The translations under genes and the position numbers were made by a program. From Escherichia coli (GTDB taxonomy: Bacteria > Pseudomonadota > Gammaproteobacteria > Enterobacterales > Enterobacteriaceae): a DNA stretch of 64,000 nt. The notes beneath the pieces are model-generated. The model was not told where the DNA came from. It was given only the letters and a program-made list of their open reading frames with translations, and did not search any database. Numbering within the stretch: position 1 is the first letter of the stretch; each line of letters starts with the position of its first letter. Shown one piece after another: positions 7,083-50,578 of the stretch. Where the stretch lies: the NCBI RefSeq assembly GCF_013122565.1, contig NZ_CP053258.1. One strand, given 5' to 3'.

Positions 7083-9026
7083 ATGATTAAGTTTAGCGCA
7101 ACGCTCCTGGCCACGCTGATTGCCGCCAGTGTGAATGCAGCGACGGTCGATCTGCGTATCATGGAAACCACTGATCTGCATAGCAACATGATGGATTTCG
7201 ATTATTACAAAGACACCGCCACGGAAAAATTCGGACTGGTACGTACGGCAAGCCTGATTAACGATGCCCGCAATGAAGTGAAAAACAGCGTACTGGTCGA
7301 TAACGGCGATTTGATTCAGGGGAGTCCGCTGGCCGATTACATGTCGGCGAAAGGATTAAAAGCAGGTGATATTCACCCGGTCTATAAGGCATTAAATACG
7401 CTGGACTATACCGTCGGCACGCTTGGCAACCATGAGTTTAACTACGGTCTGGATTACCTGAAAAATGCGCTGGCAGGAGCGAAATTTCCTTATGTAAATG
7501 CCAACGTCATTGACGCCAGAACCAAACAGCCAATGTTTACACCGTATTTAATTAAAGATACCGAAGTGGTCGATAAGGACGGAAAAAAACAGACGCTGAA
7601 GATTGGCTATATTGGCGTCGTGCCGCCGCAAATCATGGGCTGGGATAAAGCTAATTTATCCGGGAAAGTGACGGTAAATGATATTACCGAAACCGTGCGC
7701 AAATACGTGCCTGAAATGCGCGAGAAAGGTGCCGATGTTATTGTCGTTCTGGCGCATTCCGGGCTGTCTGCCGATCCGTATAAAGTGATGGCGGAAAACT
7801 CAGTTTATTACCTCAGTGAAATTCCGGGCGTTAACGCCATTATGTTTGGTCATGCTCACGCCGTTTTCCCAGGTAAAGATTTTGCTGATATCGAAGGGGC
7901 TGATATCGCGAAAGGCACGCTGAATGGTGTTCCGGCGGTAATGCCAGGCATGTGGGGCGATCATCTTGGTGTAGTCGACTTACAACTCAGTAATGACAGC
8001 GGTAAATGGCAGGTGACGCAGGCGAAAGCGGAAGCACGACCGATTTACGACATCGCTAATAAAAAATCCCTCGCGGCGGAAGACAGCAAGCTGGTAGAAA
8101 CACTCAAAGCCGATCACGATGCCACACGCCAGTTCGTCAGCAAGCCAATCGGTAAATCTGCCGACAATATGTATAGCTATCTGGCGCTGGTGCAGGACGA
8201 TCCGACCGTGCAGGTGGTGAACAACGCGCAAAAAGCGTATGTCGAGCATTACATTCAGGGCGATCCGGATCTGGCAAAACTGCCGGTGCTTTCAGCTGCC
8301 GCACCGTTTAAAGTTGGTGGTCGCAAAAATGACCCGGCAAGCTATGTGGAAGTGGAAAAAGGCCAGTTGACCTTCCGTAATGCCGCCGATCTTTATCTCT
8401 ATCCCAATACGCTGATTGTGGTGAAAGCCAACGGTAAAGAGGTGAAAGAGTGGCTGGAGTGCTCCGCCGGACAGTTTAACCAGATTGATCCTAACAGCAC
8501 GAAACCACAGTCACTCATCAACTGGGATAGTTTCCGCACCTATAACTTTGATGTGATTGATGGTGTGAATTATCAGATTGATGTTACCCAGCCTGCCCGT
8601 TATGACGGCGAGTGCCAGATGGTTAATGCCAATGCGGAAAGGATTAAGAACCTGACCTTTAATGGCAAGCCGATTGATCCGAACGCCATGTTCCTCGTTG
8701 CCACCAATAACTATCGCGCTTACGGCGGCAAATTTGCTGGTACGGGCGACAGCCATATCGCTTTTGCTTCACCGGATGAGAACCGCTCGGTGCTGGCAGC
8801 TTGGATTGCTGATGAGTCGAAACGTGCGGGGGAAATTCACCCGGCAGCAGATAACAACTGGCGTTTAGCACCGATTGCCGGCGATAAGAAACTGGATATC
8901 CGTTTCGAAACCTCTCCGTCAGATAAAGCCGCAGCGTTTATTAAAGAGAAAGGGCAATATCCGATGAATAAAGTCGCGACCGATGATATCGGGTTTGCGA
9001 TTTATCAGGTGGATTTGAGTAAGTAA
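7083..9026 (+). CDS. cpdB: 2',3'-cyclic-nucleotide 2'-phosphodiesterase / 3'-nucleotidase CpdB
   Basis: 647 aa from [19 protein letters not shown] signal peptide; calcineurin-like metallophosphatase plus 5'-nucleotidase C-terminal region. Confidence 0.93.
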
Positions 9027-9044
9027 AACACTTCTTTTTCGGCC

Positions 9045-9236
9045 TATAAATCATCAACCGCATCCGGCACTTTTGGCGGATGCGCTGCTGGCGCATCTTA
9101 TCCGCCCTACAAGCCATGAACCGTTGACCATATAAGCGCAGCGCATCCGGCTCTTCCTGGCGGAGGCGATGCTGACGCATCTTATCCGCCCTACAAGCCA
9201 TGAACCATAGACCGGATAAGCGCAGCGCATCCGGCA
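9045..9236. repeat. Composite REP/BIME cluster with tandemly duplicated ~85 bp unit
   Basis: Two copies of gatgc(t)g...gcgcatcttatccgccctacaagccatgaacc...ataagcgcagcgcatccggc. Confidence 0.8.
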
Positions 9237-9237
9237 G

Positions 9238-9402
9238 TTATGCCGCACGTTCATCCCGCACCGCTAACACCTCGGGCAAATTCAACTCAATCCAGTCCGC
9301 CAGTGCAGCAACCTTTTCGCTCACCTGCTCGCCCAGCGGCGTGAGGCTGTATTCCACATGCGGCGGCGTTACTGGCGTTGTCCGGCCAATGTTAATAACT
9401 AG
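9238..9402 (-). pseudogene. ytfH: Truncated remnant of HxlR-family regulator ytfH (C-terminal ~45 codons only)
   Basis: Minus-strand frame reads ...PVTPPHVEYSLTPLGEQVSEKVAALADWIELNLPEVLAVRDERAA*; in-frame stop at 9403-9405 leaves at most 54 codons, no N-terminal HTH region. Confidence 0.55.
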
Positions 9403-9500
9403 TTAATTAAAGTGGCATCCTCCCGCATCCTCTCTGATAATGACGGGATGCCGGGAGCAATCATGTCTGCTTCCTGAACTTTCTTCTGACAGATCAATGG

Positions 9501-10502
9501 ATGCCAGTAATGATTAGCGGCGTGCTGTACGCCCTGTTAGCAGGGTTGATGTGGGGGCTTATCTTTGTCGGGCCGTTGATCGTGCCGGAATACCCGGCGA
9601 TGTTGCAGTCGATGGGGCGTTATCTGGCGTTAGGGTTAATTGCGCTACCCATTGCCTGGCTGGGACGCGTGCGTCTGCGTCAGTTGGCGCGTCGCGACTG
9701 GCTTACCGCCTTGATGCTCACCATGATGGGCAACCTTATCTATTACTTCTGCCTTGCCAGTGCCATTCAACGTACTGGCGCGCCTGTTTCCACGATGATT
9801 ATCGGCACCCTGCCGGTGGTCATTCCTGTCTTTGCCAATCTGCTTTATAGCCAGCGCGACGGCAAACTCGCATGGGGAAAACTCGCCCCGGCACTGGTTT
9901 GTATTGGCATCGGCCTGGCGTGTGTGAATGTTGCTGAGTTAAACCACGGACTCCCCGATTTTGACTGGGCACGTTATACCTCTGGCATCGTGCTGGCGTT
10001 AGTTTCCGTGGTCTGCTGGGCGTGGTATGCCCTGCGCAACGCCCGCTGGCTGCGGGAAAATCCCGACAAACATCCGATGATGTGGGCAACGGCGCAGGCG
10101 CTGGTCACGCTGCCGGTTTCTCTCATCGGCTATCTCGTCGCTTGTTACTGGCTGAATACGCAAACGCCGGATTTCACGCTTCCTTTTGGCCCGCGTCCGT
10201 TGGTTTTTATCAGCCTGATGGTCGCAATCGCTATTCTCTGCTCGTGGGTGGGCGCGCTTTGCTGGAATATCGCCAGCCAGCGTTTGCCTACGGTGATCCT
10301 CGGCCCGTTAATCGTGTTTGAGACGCTGGCGGGTTTGCTGTACACCTTTTTGCTACGCCAGCAATTGCCATCGCTGTTAACGTTTAGCGGCATTGCGCTG
10401 TTAGTGATTGGCGTGGTGATTGCGGTTCGGGCGAAGCCGGAGAAACCGTTGAGTGTCACTATTACCGACGTTAACAAACCCACTGCCACGAAAGGGTTAT
10501 AG
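9501..10502 (+). CDS. ytfF: Inner membrane DMT/EamA-family transporter YtfF
   Basis: 333 aa polytopic membrane ORF; synteny immediately upstream of ytfE; exact start uncertain. Confidence 0.85.
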   Translation: MPVMISGVLYALLAGLMWGLIFVGPLIVPEYPAMLQSMGRYLALGLIALPIAWLGRVRLRQLARRDWLTALMLTMMGNLIYYFCLASAIQRTGAPVSTMIIGTLPVVIPVFANLLYSQRDGKLAWGKLAPALVCIGIGLACVNVAELNHGLPDFDWARYTSGIVLALVSVVCWAWYALRNARWLRENPDKHPMMWATAQALVTLPVSLIGYLVACYWLNTQTPDFTLPFGPRPLVFISLMVAIAILCSWVGALCWNIASQRLPTVILGPLIVFETLAGLLYTFLLRQQLPSLLTFSGIALLVIGVVIAVRAKPEKPLSVTITDVNKPTATKGL

Positions 10503-10512
10503 CTTTACCTAA

Positions 10513-10535
10513 AAGATGCATTTAATATGCATCTT
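10513..10535. promoter_or_regulatory. NsrR-type operator upstream of ytfE
   Basis: aagatgcatttaatatgcatctt: 9-bp perfect inverted arms, 27 bp upstream of ytfE start; matches the known NsrR palindrome. Confidence 0.75.
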
Positions 10536-10561
10536 ATATTTTTCACCATGAGGTATCCGCT

Positions 10562-11224
10562 ATGGCTTATCGCGACCAATCTTTAGGGGAACTGGCACTC
10601 GCTATTCCTCGCGCTTCGGCACTGTTTCGTCAATATGATATGGATTACTGCTGCGGCGGTAAGCAAACGCTGGCGCGCGCGGCAGCACGTAAGGAGCTGG
10701 ATGTTGAGGTCATTGAAGCCAAACTGGCAAAGCTTGCAGAACAACCGATTGAGAAAGACTGGCGTAGCGCCCCGCTGGCGGAAATCATCGACCATATCAT
10801 CGTGCGCTACCACGATCGTCACCGCGAACAACTGCCAGAGTTGATCCTGCAAGCTTCTAAAGTCGAGCGCGTTCACGCCGACAAACCGAGCGTGCCAAAA
10901 GGGCTGACAAAATACCTGACCATGCTGCATGAAGAGCTTTCCAGCCACATGATGAAAGAAGAGCAGATCCTCTTCCCGATGATCAAACAAGGCATGGGCA
11001 GCCAGGCGATGGGGCCAATCAGCGTAATGGAAAGCGAGCACGATGAAGCGGGCGAACTGCTGGAAGTGATTAAACACACCACCAATAACGTCACACCGCC
11101 GCCGGAAGCCTGCACCACCTGGAAAGCGATGTATAACGGTATTAATGAATTGATTGATGACCTGATGGAGCACATCAGCCTGGAAAACAATGTGCTGTTC
11201 CCACGCGCGCTGGCTGGTGAGTGA
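10562..11224 (+). CDS. ytfE: Iron-sulfur cluster repair di-iron protein YtfE (RIC)
   Basis: 220 aa; ScdA_N plus hemerythrin-like region (HH..EE motifs); synteny. Confidence 0.93.
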
Positions 11225-11232
11225 TTCGTTCG

Positions 11233-11265
11233 ATCAACGATCCTGACATGTACGGGATCGTTGAT
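11233..11265. terminator. Hairpin between convergent ytfE and downstream repeat-protein gene
   Basis: 11-bp perfect stem atcaacgatcc/ggatcgttgat with 11-nt loop; weak T-tract. Confidence 0.5.
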
Positions 11266-11276
11266 TGTTAAGAGGT

Positions 11277-12770
11277 TCAGTCTTTCAATGGACGTAATTC
11301 ATTGTTGTAACTGGTGTAACTGCCTTCAACGGTAAGTAGATTGCCGTTTTCATCAAGATGCGCCGCATTGAGTTGTCGAGTTTCATTACGCCGCTTCGCA
11401 TCACGAACCAGCCCATCGCCTACGTAATAAATATAGTGGTCATCATGAGCAAAGGTATCTGATAATTGACCATTGGCGTATTTAAACCACGTCCATTGGC
11501 CTTTAAGCTCAAATTTCTCAACCGTGTCTTTATCAATAAAATACGTATAGCGATCGTCATGTGCCAAATAATTTAATGTTGTGCCATCGGGGCTTTTATA
11601 CCACTGCCATTGCCCATTGATATCAAAAATAGTCACATCATCCCTTGCAAGGAAATAAACTTTATTCCCTACAACATTAGCACCTTCCTGTAATTCTTGT
11701 TGCGGGTCTGGTAAATGAATGACCGAAAGCGTTTTTTCGACCGCAGAAATATACTTCACCAGATAGAGCGAATCTTTATATTGCGCCACATTCTTCGTCA
11801 GCGGGCGAAAATATTCCGGATCAACATCAGGAATGGTCGCAACCCGGCAGTCATTGGCACGCCAGGAAGCATCACGCGTCATCCAGGTTACTTTATCCCG
11901 CTGTAGGTCAAATGTATTCCGGCAATCTTTACCGAACGAATAACGTTTCTCCCCGTCCTTATCGCGATAAATCAGCAGGGAACCGGCTATCCAGCGCACA
12001 ATATGAAAGGTGTCCGGATCGGCGTCGATGGCATCTCCGTTCACAAAGACCTGCGATTTTGTCCGCCAGATTGTATCCCAGGGTGCGGGATGCCCCCAAC
12101 TTTCACAACTGTTTGGCAAATAAAGAATATTCCGTTGGGCCCAGGGTTTAATATCAAGAATAGAATATCCTTGGGTACTACCCAACCAGCGTCCCTGAAA
12201 GTAAAGATTGCGACGATCTTTCAGCACATCCGCGGAATCAACTGAATTCATCCTCCCCCCCACCTGTTGCAGCGAATCCATATCGACCTGCTTTTCGCCG
12301 TGATTATCATCCGTGCGTTCGCCGTCAAAATAGAGGCTGTCTTTATCGGCAGCAAAACGCCCCCATGCGCGGAATGTTGCGGCATCGACTTTCGGTGTTC
12401 CCGGCGGGTTCTGAACTATTTTCCCTGCCCATAAAATATGGCGACCATCGGTCAACCAGTCGAAACGCCAACTGCTGTTAGTTCTGATATTAGTGCCAGC
12501 ATCTACCTGAACAAAATCATTATTGATATCATCAGGAGAATCATATTTATCATCAGTGCCGTTGGGTACGCGGCGAAGTTGCTTAAACTTCACCTGCGAT
12601 AAATGAATATCCGGAAAATAGAGTCCGTAACCATCACTATCTTCAACGATATATTTTGTGCCTTGCCCCCACGGCTGGTAGTAAAACGCAGCATAAGGCA
12701 CACCAGAGCAAGCTATTGAAGCGGTTGAAAATAAAGCCAGTGCGAGACAAACAGGTTTAATTGGCAACAT
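11277..12770 (-). CDS. Secreted repeat protein, paralogue A (DKNYY-like repeats), function unknown
   Basis: 497 aa; N-terminal signal peptide MLPIKPVCLALALFSTASIACSG; repeated D-K-x-x-LYF/DA-x-TF blocks; ATG with AGGA RBS. Confidence 0.8.
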   Translation of the reverse strand: MLPIKPVCLALALFSTASIACSGVPYAAFYYQPWGQGTKYIVEDSDGYGLYFPDIHLSQVKFKQLRRVPNGTDDKYDSPDDINNDFVQVDAGTNIRTNSSWRFDWLTDGRHILWAGKIVQNPPGTPKVDAATFRAWGRFAADKDSLYFDGERTDDNHGEKQVDMDSLQQVGGRMNSVDSADVLKDRRNLYFQGRWLGSTQGYSILDIKPWAQRNILYLPNSCESWGHPAPWDTIWRTKSQVFVNGDAIDADPDTFHIVRWIAGSLLIYRDKDGEKRYSFGKDCRNTFDLQRDKVTWMTRDASWRANDCRVATIPDVDPEYFRPLTKNVAQYKDSLYLVKYISAVEKTLSVIHLPDPQQELQEGANVVGNKVYFLARDDVTIFDINGQWQWYKSPDGTTLNYLAHDDRYTYFIDKDTVEKFELKGQWTWFKYANGQLSDTFAHDDHYIYYVGDGLVRDAKRRNETRQLNAAHLDENGNLLTVEGSYTSYNNELRPLKD

Positions 12771-12802
12771 AGCGTCATCCTGAAGCTGTTAGCGTGAAGA
12801 GG

Positions 12803-13960
12803 TTATTTAAATAAGGGTTTAAGACCGCTCGGGGGTTGCTTCACCGATGACCAACCTCCCTTACCTAAGTTATAACGCAGCCATTTACCTTGTTGGACGT
12901 GCTCTTTCCCAACTCCAGTCGCTTGTTGAGTGTAAAGCTGCCCGTCTGTTGATATAAACGTGTTAGTTAATCCCCAACTACCACCTGCTTCAAGTGAGTC
13001 GGTGAGATCCTCTGGCTTGAGATTAATCAACTCCCCTTCGCCCAGGGCGTTGGTTGTGACTTTATAAATTTGGTTCTTATATAAACCGGTATTGCGAACA
13101 AACAGATAAAAATATTCCGGATCAACTCGCGGCAGCGTTTCATAAATACACTCACTGCCCGCTGGAGTGGCTTCATGTTTGAGCCAGGACACGTTATTCA
13201 GACCAATATTAAAAGGTGCACAGCGATAGCTGGTATCCTCCAGCTCATAGTCACGCTCACCGCTTTTATCGCGATAAACTAAGCGTTCGCCAGGCATCCA
13301 GCGGATTATCTGAAAGGTTTTACGATCGGCGGGCAGCGGCTTGCCATTAACAATCACCTGCGAATTTGTCAGCACAACAAATTGCAGGGCGGAATCATGC
13401 CGCACGATTTGAAACCCGTCAGCGCTTCCCAACCAGTGCCCCTTATGCCAAAGACTATTTTTATCACGCAGTAAATTCCAGATGTCCGTCTCTTCAAGCG
13501 TTGACATATCCACCTGCTTATCACCGCTATTATCATCGGTACGCTGACCGTCAAAATAGATACTGCGTTTATCAGCAGCGAAAGCGCCGAATGCCTGAAA
13601 ACTGGCAGCGTCGACTTTAGGTTTACCGGGGGGGTTTTTCAGGACTTTGCCAGACCAAAGGACAGAGCGTCCATCAGTGAGCCAGGCATGCTGGCAATCC
13701 CCCTCGTCATCACAATCGAACTTATCGGGATTAAAATCTGACAGTAACCGGCAATCTTGTTTATTGGTTAAATTGGCAATGCGCCAGAGGCGGGAAAAGT
13801 TAACGTCCAGCAGTTCGGAGAGGATCTCATCTTTTTGCCCCTTCTCTTCGGCAACGTAAACCGTGCCTTTCTCCTGCTGGCGGTAATAAAAATCCGCGCC
13901 CCAGGAAGGTGAAATGGAGAGCGGTAATGCGGTGATTAATAACCAACTTCGCGTAACCAT
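12803..13960 (-). CDS. Secreted repeat protein, paralogue B (DKNYY-like repeats), function unknown
   Basis: Signal peptide MVTRSWLLITALPLSISPSWGA; block WLTDGRSVLWSGKVLKNPPGKPKVDAASF...DKRSIYFDGQRTDDNSGDKQVDM nearly identical to paralogue A; start placed at ATG 13960 (track ORF starts at TTG 13984). Confidence 0.75.
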   Translation of the reverse strand: MVTRSWLLITALPLSISPSWGADFYYRQQEKGTVYVAEEKGQKDEILSELLDVNFSRLWRIANLTNKQDCRLLSDFNPDKFDCDDEGDCQHAWLTDGRSVLWSGKVLKNPPGKPKVDAASFQAFGAFAADKRSIYFDGQRTDDNSGDKQVDMSTLEETDIWNLLRDKNSLWHKGHWLGSADGFQIVRHDSALQFVVLTNSQVIVNGKPLPADRKTFQIIRWMPGERLVYRDKSGERDYELEDTSYRCAPFNIGLNNVSWLKHEATPAGSECIYETLPRVDPEYFYLFVRNTGLYKNQIYKVTTNALGEGELINLKPEDLTDSLEAGGSWGLTNTFISTDGQLYTQQATGVGKEHVQQGKWLRYNLGKGGWSSVKQPPSGLKPLFK

Positions 13961-14079
13961 AGTGATCTCTGAAATGAGTGGCAAAGATCCACAGTAAGTC
14001 CGCGCCTGGGGGGATGTCGATGACGGTAAGTTTTTTTAGGAATGTATAAAGACAAAGGAGATTGCTGACAAAGTGAGCT

Positions 14080-14190
<111 letters not shown>

Positions 14191-14226
14191 TGCGCCTGAA
14201 AGACACCCGCAGGTGCCTTAGCGGCA

Positions 14227-15630
14227 TTACTTCGCCATGCGTTTTTTACCAATAAACAACCAGCCCAGCCCCAACGCGATAAACCACAGCGGGGTGACCA
14301 GCAGCGCCTGGCGGGTATCATCTTCCAGCGTCAGCAGCACGATCACAAACACAAAGAACGCCATGCATACCCAGCACATCAGCTTGCCGAGCGGCATCTT
14401 GTAGATCGACTTCTCATGCAGATGAGGACGCTGTTTGCGATACACCAGGTACGAGCAAAGGATAATCGTCCAGACGAACATAAACAGAATCGCGGAAACG
14501 GTTGTAATCATCGTGAACGCGCCAATCACGCTAGGATTCACATACAACATCACCACGCCGCCGAGCAGACAGATACACGAGAAGGTCAATCCTTTCGCGG
14601 GTACTGCGCGCTTAGAAAGTTTAGCGAACGCTTTCGGCGCAACACCTTCCTGCGCCAGACCAAACAGCATACGGCTGGTAGAGAAGACACCGCTGTTAGC
14701 GGAAGACGCCGCAGAGGTCAGCACCACAAAGTTGATCACGCTGGCAGCCGCAGGCAAACCTACCAACACAAACAGTTCAACAAACGGGCTTTTCTCCGGG
14801 ACTACCGAACTCCACGGCGTCACGGACATAATCACAATCAGCGCGAAGACGTAGAACATAATGATACGGATCGGAATGGAGTTAATCGCGCGTGGCAGTG
14901 ATTTCTCTGGATCTTTGGTTTCCGCAGCTGTTGTACCTACCAGCTCAATCCCCACGAAAGCGAAAACCGCTATCTGGAATCCGGCAAAGAAGCCACTTAA
15001 ACCTTTCGGGAACCAGCCGCCGTCATTCCACAAATGCGCGAATGACGCTTCCACACCAGTCGGTGACTGAAAGTGCATCGCCACCATGACCAGGCCGACG
15101 ACAATCAGCGACACAATGGCGACGATTTTGATCATCGCAAACCAGAACTCCATCTCACCGAACATTTTCACGGTGGCGAGGTTAAGCGTCAGCAGCAGCA
15201 CTATCACCGCCAGCGAGGCGACCCAGTCGGAGAGATCGGGGAACCAGAACTGAGCATAAGCCGTGATCGCCACCACGTCTGCCATACCGGTTACAACCCA
15301 GCAGAACCAGTAAGTCCAGCCGGTGAAATATCCTGCCCACGGCCCGAGTAAATCGGAAGCGAAGTCACTAAAAGATTTGTATTCCAGATTCGAAAGCAGC
15401 AATTCCCCCATTGCCCGCATCACGAAAAAGAGCATAAAACCAATGATCATATAAACGAAAATGATCGACGGCCCGGCAAGGCTAATCGTTTTGCCAGACC
15501 CCATAAACAACCCCGTACCAATGGCACCGCCAATGGCAATAAGCTGAATATGTCGGTTTGTGAGATTGCGCCGTAGCGACTGTTCAGCCGGAGCCTGATC
15601 ATCGGCAACGACTTTTACCTGATCTACCAT
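14227..15630 (-). CDS. cycA: D-serine/D-alanine/glycine transporter CycA (APC family)
   Basis: 467 aa ORF MVDQVKVVADDQAPAEQSLRRNLTNRHIQLIAIGGAIGTGLFMGSGK... Confidence 0.93.
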   Translation of the reverse strand: MVDQVKVVADDQAPAEQSLRRNLTNRHIQLIAIGGAIGTGLFMGSGKTISLAGPSIIFVYMIIGFMLFFVMRAMGELLLSNLEYKSFSDFASDLLGPWAGYFTGWTYWFCWVVTGMADVVAITAYAQFWFPDLSDWVASLAVIVLLLTLNLATVKMFGEMEFWFAMIKIVAIVSLIVVGLVMVAMHFQSPTGVEASFAHLWNDGGWFPKGLSGFFAGFQIAVFAFVGIELVGTTAAETKDPEKSLPRAINSIPIRIIMFYVFALIVIMSVTPWSSVVPEKSPFVELFVLVGLPAAASVINFVVLTSAASSANSGVFSTSRMLFGLAQEGVAPKAFAKLSKRAVPAKGLTFSCICLLGGVVMLYVNPSVIGAFTMITTVSAILFMFVWTIILCSYLVYRKQRPHLHEKSIYKMPLGKLMCWVCMAFFVFVIVLLTLEDDTRQALLVTPLWFIALGLGWLFIGKKRMAK

Positions 15631-38615: not shown

Positions 38616-38650
38616 GCCGGATGCGGCGCGAGCGCCTTGTCCGGCCTACA
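38616..38650. repeat. REP element
   Basis: gccggatgcggcgcgagcgccttgtccggcctaca. Confidence 0.85.
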
Positions 38651-50479: not shown

Positions 50480-50578
50480 GCCTGATGCACTACGTTTATC
50501 CGGCCTACATGATCTCTGCAATATATTGAATTTGCGTGATTATGTAGGCCGGATAAGGCGTTCACGCCGCATCCGGCA
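50480..50578. repeat. REP/BIME element (two inverted REP units)
   Basis: tgcctgatgcactacgtttatccggcctaca ... tgtaggccggataaggcgttcacgccgcatccggca. Confidence 0.85.

Follow-up and report, generated by a model that had tools for sequence, protein, structure and literature searches.

From our repeat, folding and comparative analyses, we conclude, with a probability of about 90%, that the spacer between cpdB and ytfH contains a BIME, that is, an array of REP sequences in alternating orientation, and that this array is unrelated to the ytfH-qorB deletion beside it. The window (the whole 64-kb stretch of DNA analysed here) is E. coli; its cpdB is 98% identical to that of K-12, and its cycA-fklB segment 98.7%. 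The element is of a known type and shows a known type of polymorphism, as copy-number variation of BIMEs is textbook. Its proper annotation label is BIME (REP cluster) length polymorphism, and it matters little beyond annotation. The locus is a small, clean example of in-register BIME expansion or contraction across Escherichia species.

Architecture and class of the array

Tandem Repeats Finder placed a tandem array at 9059–9236 with a period of 84, 2.1 copies, 88% matches and a score of 284, and returned no other array with a score of at least 80 in the 64-kb window. With a gap-free repeat finder, two 78-nt copies (9074–9151 and 9158–9235) were found to be 91% identical at a spacing of 84, and a third, partial copy of CGCATCCGGC was located at 9059. 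The 20-mer GCGCATCTTATCCGCCCTAC, taken from the preliminary description, occurs twice, at 9091 and 9175, for a chance expectation of 0.01. Units 1 and 2 differ at 7 of 78 positions and by an indel in the linker. These results from both repeat searches and the motif count bear out the tandem composite unit of two REP-like palindromes that had been described 3′ of cpdB, in the spacer between this gene and the convergent 3′ stub of ytfH. The wording "directly adjacent to the ytfH stub" was also right, because the array stops 2 nt before the ytfH stop codon (complement 9238–9240). The earlier extent of 9045–9236 holds at its end and has to be corrected at its start, as the repeat begins at 9059 and 9045–9058 is unique spacer; the unit size of about 85 bp came close to the exact period of 84 bp.

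Each 84-bp unit is composed of a 37-nt z2-type REP, a 12-nt linker, a 29-nt z1-length REP and a 6-nt linker. Two units and a partial REP are present in the window, with the following parts and neighbours.

7083–9026, + strand: cpdB (2′,3′-cyclic-nucleotide 2′-phosphodiesterase), open reading frame with Pfam matches to Metallophos and 5_nucleotid_C, 98% identical to K-12 cpdB
9024–9026, + strand: cpdB stop codon; the array lies in the 3′ flank of cpdB
9027–9058: unique spacer of 32 nt, read from the sequence
9059–9069, + strand: REP remnant CGCATCCGGCA, partial and counted as the "0.1 copy"; it pairs head-to-head with the left arm of the REP that follows
9070–9073: CTTT, between the REP remnant and the first 37-nt REP
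9074–9110, + strand: unit 1, z2-type REP of 37 nt in iREP orientation, with CTAC at 9107–9110 (GTAG on the − strand); match to the REP pattern
9111–9122: unit 1, tail-to-tail linker AAGCCATGAACC of 12 nt, read from the sequence
9123–9151, + strand: unit 1, z1-length REP of 29 nt in opposite orientation, decayed; GTTG replaces GTAG (9123–9126) and the foot is changed from CCGG to CCAT
9152–9157: internal head-to-head linker TCTTCC between units 1 and 2, read from the sequence
9158–9194, + strand: unit 2, z2-type REP of 37 nt in iREP orientation, with CTAC at 9191–9194
9195–9206: unit 2, tail-to-tail linker AAGCCATGAACC of 12 nt, as in unit 1
9207–9235, + strand: unit 2, z1-length REP of 29 nt; ATAG replaces GTAG (9207–9210), and on the − strand it starts 2 nt past the ytfH stop codon
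9238–9240: complement of the ytfH stop codon, two bases past the array
9238–9390, − strand: ytfH 3′ stub, a pseudogene remnant, from the translations
9388–9402, + strand: last 15 nt of qorB, AATGTTAATAACTAG, the right side of the deletion junction, from the alignment with K-12
9510–10502, + strand: ytfF (EamA/DMT transporter), open reading frame with Pfam match, now the neighbour of the ytfH stub

The REPs of E. coli have been classified as y (35 nt), z1 (29 nt) and z2 (37 nt), each being an imperfect palindrome that is preceded by GTAG and has an AA-GC mismatch in its stem (PMC8266576), and they are usually paired in opposite orientation as BIMEs (PMC8266576, PMC3333891). The element lengths of 37 and 29 nt found here equal those published for z2 and z1 (PMC8266576). 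Three of the four elements fold into stem-loops, namely the 37-nt REPs of unit 1 (−12.5 kcal/mol, z = −4.4) and unit 2 (−10.4 kcal/mol, z = −4.5) and the 29-nt REP of unit 2 (−7.6 kcal/mol, z = −2.5). The 29-nt REP of unit 1 has lost its palindrome and forms no stable hairpin (−1.9 kcal/mol, z = +1.2); it was aligned with intact homologues. The REP remnant and the adjacent left arm form a hairpin of their own at 9059–9084 (−12.7 kcal/mol, z = −7.6). In order, the elements run iREP, 12-nt linker, REP, 6-nt linker, iREP, 12-nt linker, REP with a period of 84, which is the alternating architecture of a BIME.

Further support came from an alignment of 11 distinct units from eight genomes. The columns of the AA-GC 2 × 2 mismatch (G9 C10 opposite T25 T26, and A61 A62 opposite G70 C71) are invariant in 11 of 11 units, and 93% of the cells are paired in the canonical REP architecture, compared to 29–46% when the partners are slid. 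The 12-nt linker is mostly conserved, with four variable columns. The GTAG/CTAC tetranucleotide is present in both 37-nt elements of the window and replaced in both 29-nt elements, while 7 of the 11 homologous units, that of K-12 among these, have GTAG at the 29-nt REP. Covariation of the stems was not significant in these 11 units, with one compensatory pair (in E. whittamii) and 54–63 of 500 shuffles scoring as high under two alternative pairings; the test is underpowered because close relatives vary too little.

As expected for an extragenic multi-copy family, the REP half-motif matched 12 times in the 64-kb window (0.83 expected), with full REPs outside the array at 14092, 14157 and 50544 and canonical y and z1 REPs at 14092–14181, 50495–50573 and 2195–2257. 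A query for the consensus unit junction found a median of 4 match places per E. coli genome. Additional REP or REP-pair matches in the window were noted at 2195–2257, 38636–38649 and 50495–50573, the last of which includes a canonical y REP.

The class of the unit was assigned by element lengths and by comparison with REPs found in this analysis. BIME-2 elements (y + z2) and chimeric BIMEs of the atypical class are found in tandem, with a copy number that differs between strains at a given locus, while BIME-1 elements (y + z1) have a long linker and are single-copy (PMC3333891). The array resembles BIME-2 and atypical BIMEs (Bachellier, Gilson, Hofnung; Ton-Hoang et al. 2012, PMC3333891) in its alternating inverted REPs with short linkers, in its extragenic position between convergent genes, in its strain-variable tandem number, and in a 37-nt z2-type REP with CTAC/GTAG and the AA-GC stem mismatch. 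The z2-type label is supported by the acs-yjcH spacer of E. coli SE15, where a near-identical element of 37 nt has a classic y REP as its partner. The partner REP in the window, however, is 29 nt long, in contrast to the 35-nt y REP of BIME-2, and both of its copies have a mutated GTAG. Compared to the z1-type REP at 14157–14181 it has 3 differences; its foot is y-like, and alignment with the y consensus would require a gap of 5 nt. A partner of z1 length with a y-like foot makes the unit chimeric. The z2-type REP is not paired with a y REP of 35 nt, so the strict BIME-2 composition (y of 35 nt with z2 of 37 nt) does not apply and we file the unit as a probable atypical (chimeric), BIME-2-like BIME. 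With BIME-1, of which the window contains a typical example at 14092–14181, it shares a z1-length REP inverse to a second REP. In contrast to BIME-1, described in the literature as single-copy with a linker of ~35 nt, the unit has 12-nt and 6-nt linkers and no y REP, and is tandemly repeated. The long L linker of BIME-1 usually carries an IHF site.

With both 29-nt REPs mutated in the tetranucleotide and one hairpin lost, the array is in part a relic in decay and not a functional element. E. coli TnpA(REP) does not tolerate mutations of GTAG (PMC8266576). The doublets known as REPINs in Pseudomonas are comparable in that inverted REP pairs are the evolving unit, with presumed dependence on RAYT/TnpA(REP); they are of another REP class and genus, and are dispersed doublets, unlike the locus-specific tandem array of the window.

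Copy number across Escherichia

BIMEs are noted for exceptional length polymorphism (PMC2817692). At the cpdB-ytfH locus, the spacer of K-12 MG1655 measures 128 bp and contains one unit, and ytfH and qorB are intact, while the spacer of the window is 211 bp. The K-12 element is orthologous: it has the same flanks, the partial REP, and one unit of a z2-type and a 29-nt REP with which unit 2 of the window aligns base for base. It differs in its intact GTAG, ytfH and qorB and in lacking the extra 84-bp unit. The RefSeq features of K-12 at this locus include neither a repeat_region nor an official REP name.

Copy number was read from the span and number of pieces of each search record, and from the consensus unit-junction query; the coverage column of the search is unusable for this purpose as one unit in a subject is matched to both units of the query. 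A single unit is the rule in essentially all of 5,426 complete E. coli genomes, as judged from a spread sample and the best 60 among the matches listed: the records span 84 bp less than the query, hence one unit each. Species representatives, fetched with the 3′ end of cpdB, served for comparison. One unit with intact genes was found in E. whittamii, and one unit with the deletion in the E. albertii type strain NBRC 107761 and in E. coli HCP4S3_I4, Ec-U9-1, Ec-U14-2 and Ec-U10. Two units occur beside intact genes in Escherichia sp. E1V33, and together with the deletion in the window, SCPM-O-B-9504 and SCPM-O-B-7615, while SCPM-O-B-8794 has three units and intact genes. For SCPM-O-B-9504 the two units were established by alignment, and it also ranked top in the unit-junction query; SCPM-O-B-7615 gave a contiguous two-unit match to that query, spanning 96 nt in one piece. 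Every multi-unit array has the exact 84-bp spacing in one register, and the number of tandem copies at this one locus is thus 1, 2 or 3 across Escherichia.

SCPM-O-B-9504 (NZ_CP144930.1) is labelled E. coli, yet its ytfF-ytfE region shares 99.3% identity with the E. albertii type strain and ~93% with K-12. SCPM-O-B-7615, also labelled E. coli, gave the same search match. Both are either mislabelled or carry an introgressed segment.

The rarity of the two-unit state in E. coli could speak for an assembly artefact or a very recent duplication private to this strain: among the matches listed from a search of 5,426 complete genomes, no other E. coli sensu stricto had two units, and tandem repeats are a classic site of misassembly. 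We regard this explanation as extremely improbable. Misassembly or fresh duplication would yield identical copies, contrary to the differences at 7 of 78 positions and in the linker, and three further Escherichia lineages have arrays of two or three units that share the register and the internal linker. Exact-protein look-ups with YtfF and CpdB returned solely one short-read sample, SRR11451224, whose unitigs break inside the array. Two of these are 100% identical to the window over the aligned stretches and break exactly within a ~30-nt stretch common to both units, one having the left context of unit 1 and the other the right context of unit 2. Such a break is what the presence of two units would lead one to expect in a short-read assembly. 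The sample may be the window's own strain, so that it supports the sequence but not necessarily independently; an assembly artefact is unlikely. Excess substitution in the array of the window relative to its flanks was considered and rejected, as the single unit of K-12 is equally far from the cross-species consensus.

We instead read the array as a BIME in which whole units would be gained or lost in register. This would proceed by replication slippage or unequal recombination between the repeats, or through the REP-associated transposase TnpA(REP), routes between which the sequence does not discriminate. BIME-2 and atypical BIMEs have been described as targets that DNA gyrase binds and cleaves (PMC6379681) and as substrates of the TnpA(REP) (yafM/RAYT) of their own genome (PMC3333891). 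The linkers suggest a direction of change. The window and SCPM-O-B-8794 have TCTTCC as internal linker, E1V33 has TCTTTC and SCPM-O-B-9504 GCTTAC, and TCTTCC is also the leftmost linker of the E. albertii arrays, while a fresh duplication of a K-12-type unit would put the left linker ATTTAT in the internal position. The internal linker shared between lineages and the 9% divergence between units suggest that the state of at least two units is old and that one-unit alleles are contractions. These would be of two kinds, the K-12 type retaining the outer linker and the E. albertii type the internal one. Since BIMEs elsewhere also have linkers of the form NYTTNY, the linker argument is of moderate weight only. 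The units of one genome also have variants in common, such as GGTTAAG and AAACC in SCPM-O-B-8794 and CGAATAAG and CATCTGG in E1V33, and these array-specific variants show apparent local homogenisation or re-expansion.

In practical terms, the two-unit allele is rare among sequenced E. coli and a useful strain marker, and the array is a predictable breakpoint for short-read assemblies. The allele has no demonstrated consequence.

The neighbouring ytfH-qorB deletion

Compared to K-12, the window lacks ~1.16 kb: ytfH has lost its first ~77 codons, the promoter spacer between ytfH and qorB is missing, and only the last 15 nt of qorB remain. The junction is at ~9388–9391 (BLAST breakpoints 9367/9388), ~150 bp from the array with ~50 ytfH codons between, and the other endpoint is inside the last qorB codons. 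The last 42 codons of the ytfH stub are identical to residues 85–126 of K-12 YtfH, and ~8 codons at the junction are diverged. In HCP4S3_I4 and SCPM-O-B-9504, ytfH is annotated as "incomplete; missing N-terminus".

The preliminary description had suggested that the repeats mediated this deletion, and had proposed an alignment with K-12 to see whether an endpoint coincides with the REP cluster. It does not: in that alignment neither endpoint is a REP sequence, and no REP was found on the qorB-ytfF side. At the junction, ytfH ...CGGTTAA is joined to TGTTAATAACTAG of qorB. The clearest reading of the homologous junction in E. albertii is CCGGTTAA|TGTTAATAACTAG, also given as CCGGTTAATGTTAATAAC. 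The deletion is a separate event, and TTAA microhomology apparently mediated it. Junction and identical adjacent 20 nt are found in HCP4S3_I4 by alignment and in Ec-U9-1, Ec-U14-2 and Ec-U10 by matching search spans, while in the E. albertii type strain 6 of the 20 adjacent nt are different. The same junction therefore occurs with one unit as well as with two.

Nor is the array bound to the deletion. Against the proposed link, the preliminary description had set the possible finding of the same arrangement in genomes with intact ytfH and qorB, and E1V33 has the two-unit array beside full-length ytfH, with qorB present over the 291 nt examined. SCPM-O-B-8794 is a further counter-case, having three units in the same intact context (full-length ytfH; qorB present over the 135 nt examined). 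All four combinations of copy number and deletion hence exist, which largely refutes the link as proposed.

A promoting role of the array, by recombination between REPs or by cleavage with TnpA(REP) at a distance, can still be argued from the general behaviour of these elements. BIMEs are hot spots of polymorphism and targets of insertion sequences (PMC2817692; PMC1525189), TnpA(REP) cleaves single-stranded circles in vitro at CT dinucleotides more than 400 nt from the BIME (PMC3333891), and the left endpoint is only ~150 bp from the array. Given endpoints free of REPs and flanked by the apparent TTAA microhomology, the identical junction in one-unit and two-unit genomes, and the coexistence of two- and three-unit arrays with intact genes, we consider such a role very improbable. 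The deletion is moreover present in only 6 of 5,426 complete genomes, although the BIME is present in all. The ytfH-qorB deletion should not be attributed to the array.

The 20 nt next to the junction (9368–9387) differ from K-12 ytfH at about half of the positions and by a 3-nt gap, while the remaining 130 nt of the ytfH stub have 2 differences. This diverged stretch could be a mutation cluster or filler DNA of the junction. In a far-fetched scenario, the BIME would still be a live substrate of TnpA(REP), distal single-strand cleavage by this enzyme would have started the deletion ~150 bp away, and the 20-nt substitutions would be the scar of repair. If true, this would be the first in-genome footprint of collateral damage by TnpA(REP).

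Transcript ends and the surrounding DNA

As described in the literature, REP arrays form stem-loops at the 3′ ends of flanking transcripts, where they protect the upstream mRNA and attenuate read-through, and are binding sites for gyrase, Pol I or TnpA(REP). Hairpins of REPs and BIMEs at 3′ ends have been reported to facilitate Rho-dependent termination and to bind Pol I (PMC2817692), and BIME-2 arrays are transcription-independent gyrase sites (PMC6379681). The array could accordingly be primarily a functional RNA, either a bidirectional terminator or 3′-end stabiliser of cpdB and ytfH or a source of naRNA4-like RNA, with its copy number under selection. Several observations agree with this. 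The whole spacer folds better than shuffled sequences on both strands (z = −3.2 and −3.6). An intrinsic terminator (GC-rich hairpin followed by a T/U run) was not found on either strand in 8800–9600, which leaves the REP hairpins as the sole 3′ structures of the spacer. A REP no more than 15 nt from a stop codon, which is the situation at ytfH, belongs to a class that has been linked to translational control (PMC12306157). Weak naRNA4 matches of 26 bits point the same way.

Other observations make such a primary function unlikely. Copy number varies freely between lineages, one REP of the window has no hairpin, and the covariation of the stems described above was not significant. Since ytfH is a pseudogene in this strain, an effect on it is moot and only effects on the 3′ end of cpdB could matter. 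In Kluyvera a plain hairpin with a T run takes the same site, so a REP is not required there. The resemblance to naRNA4/REP325 (RF02564) is below threshold: the head-to-head REP pairs are alike and there are weak matches at 9041–9107 and 9126–9191, but these score 20–26 bits against a gathering score of 59.5, and the locus is another one. At a permissive E-value, the Rfam scan returned only sub-threshold naRNA4 matches (best 26.2 bits, E = 0.037) and a spurious IRES match, and membership in naRNA4 was rejected. An RNA function is compatible with the reading of the array as a BIME, as a side effect and not as the reason for the array. A promoter scan gave two weak promoter-like sites downstream of the stub, which are not relevant here.

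In each genus examined, the cpdB-ytfH spacer has a different palindromic repeat. The 3′ flank of cpdB contains single REP-like hairpins in Salmonella arizonae and Citrobacter sedlakii, a two-REP BIME of another class in MGYG-HGUT-00110, and a GC hairpin followed by a T run in Kluyvera. From these sequences, the spacer looks like a recurrent landing place for REP-type elements.

Two further segments downstream of the array set the window apart from K-12. The region ~10137–10790, covering the 3′ half of ytfF, the ytfF-ytfE spacer and the start of ytfE, is 72–85% identical to K-12, HCP4S3_I4 and E. albertii, while its flanks are 97–100% identical; it appears to be a segment of local divergence or recombination. 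The 330-aa YtfF that results is matched exactly by a single public sample, SRR11451224. Between ytfE and cycA, ~3 kb (11226–14239) are absent from K-12, and a version ~84% identical is present in E. albertii. This segment contains, on the − strand, an open reading frame of 497 aa (11277–12770) with no Pfam match and one of 393 aa (12803–13984) with a faint match to DKNYY in its Logan record. At its end, just past the cycA stop codon, there is a BIME-1-like pair consisting of a y REP (14092–14121), a 35-nt linker and a z1 REP (14157–14181).
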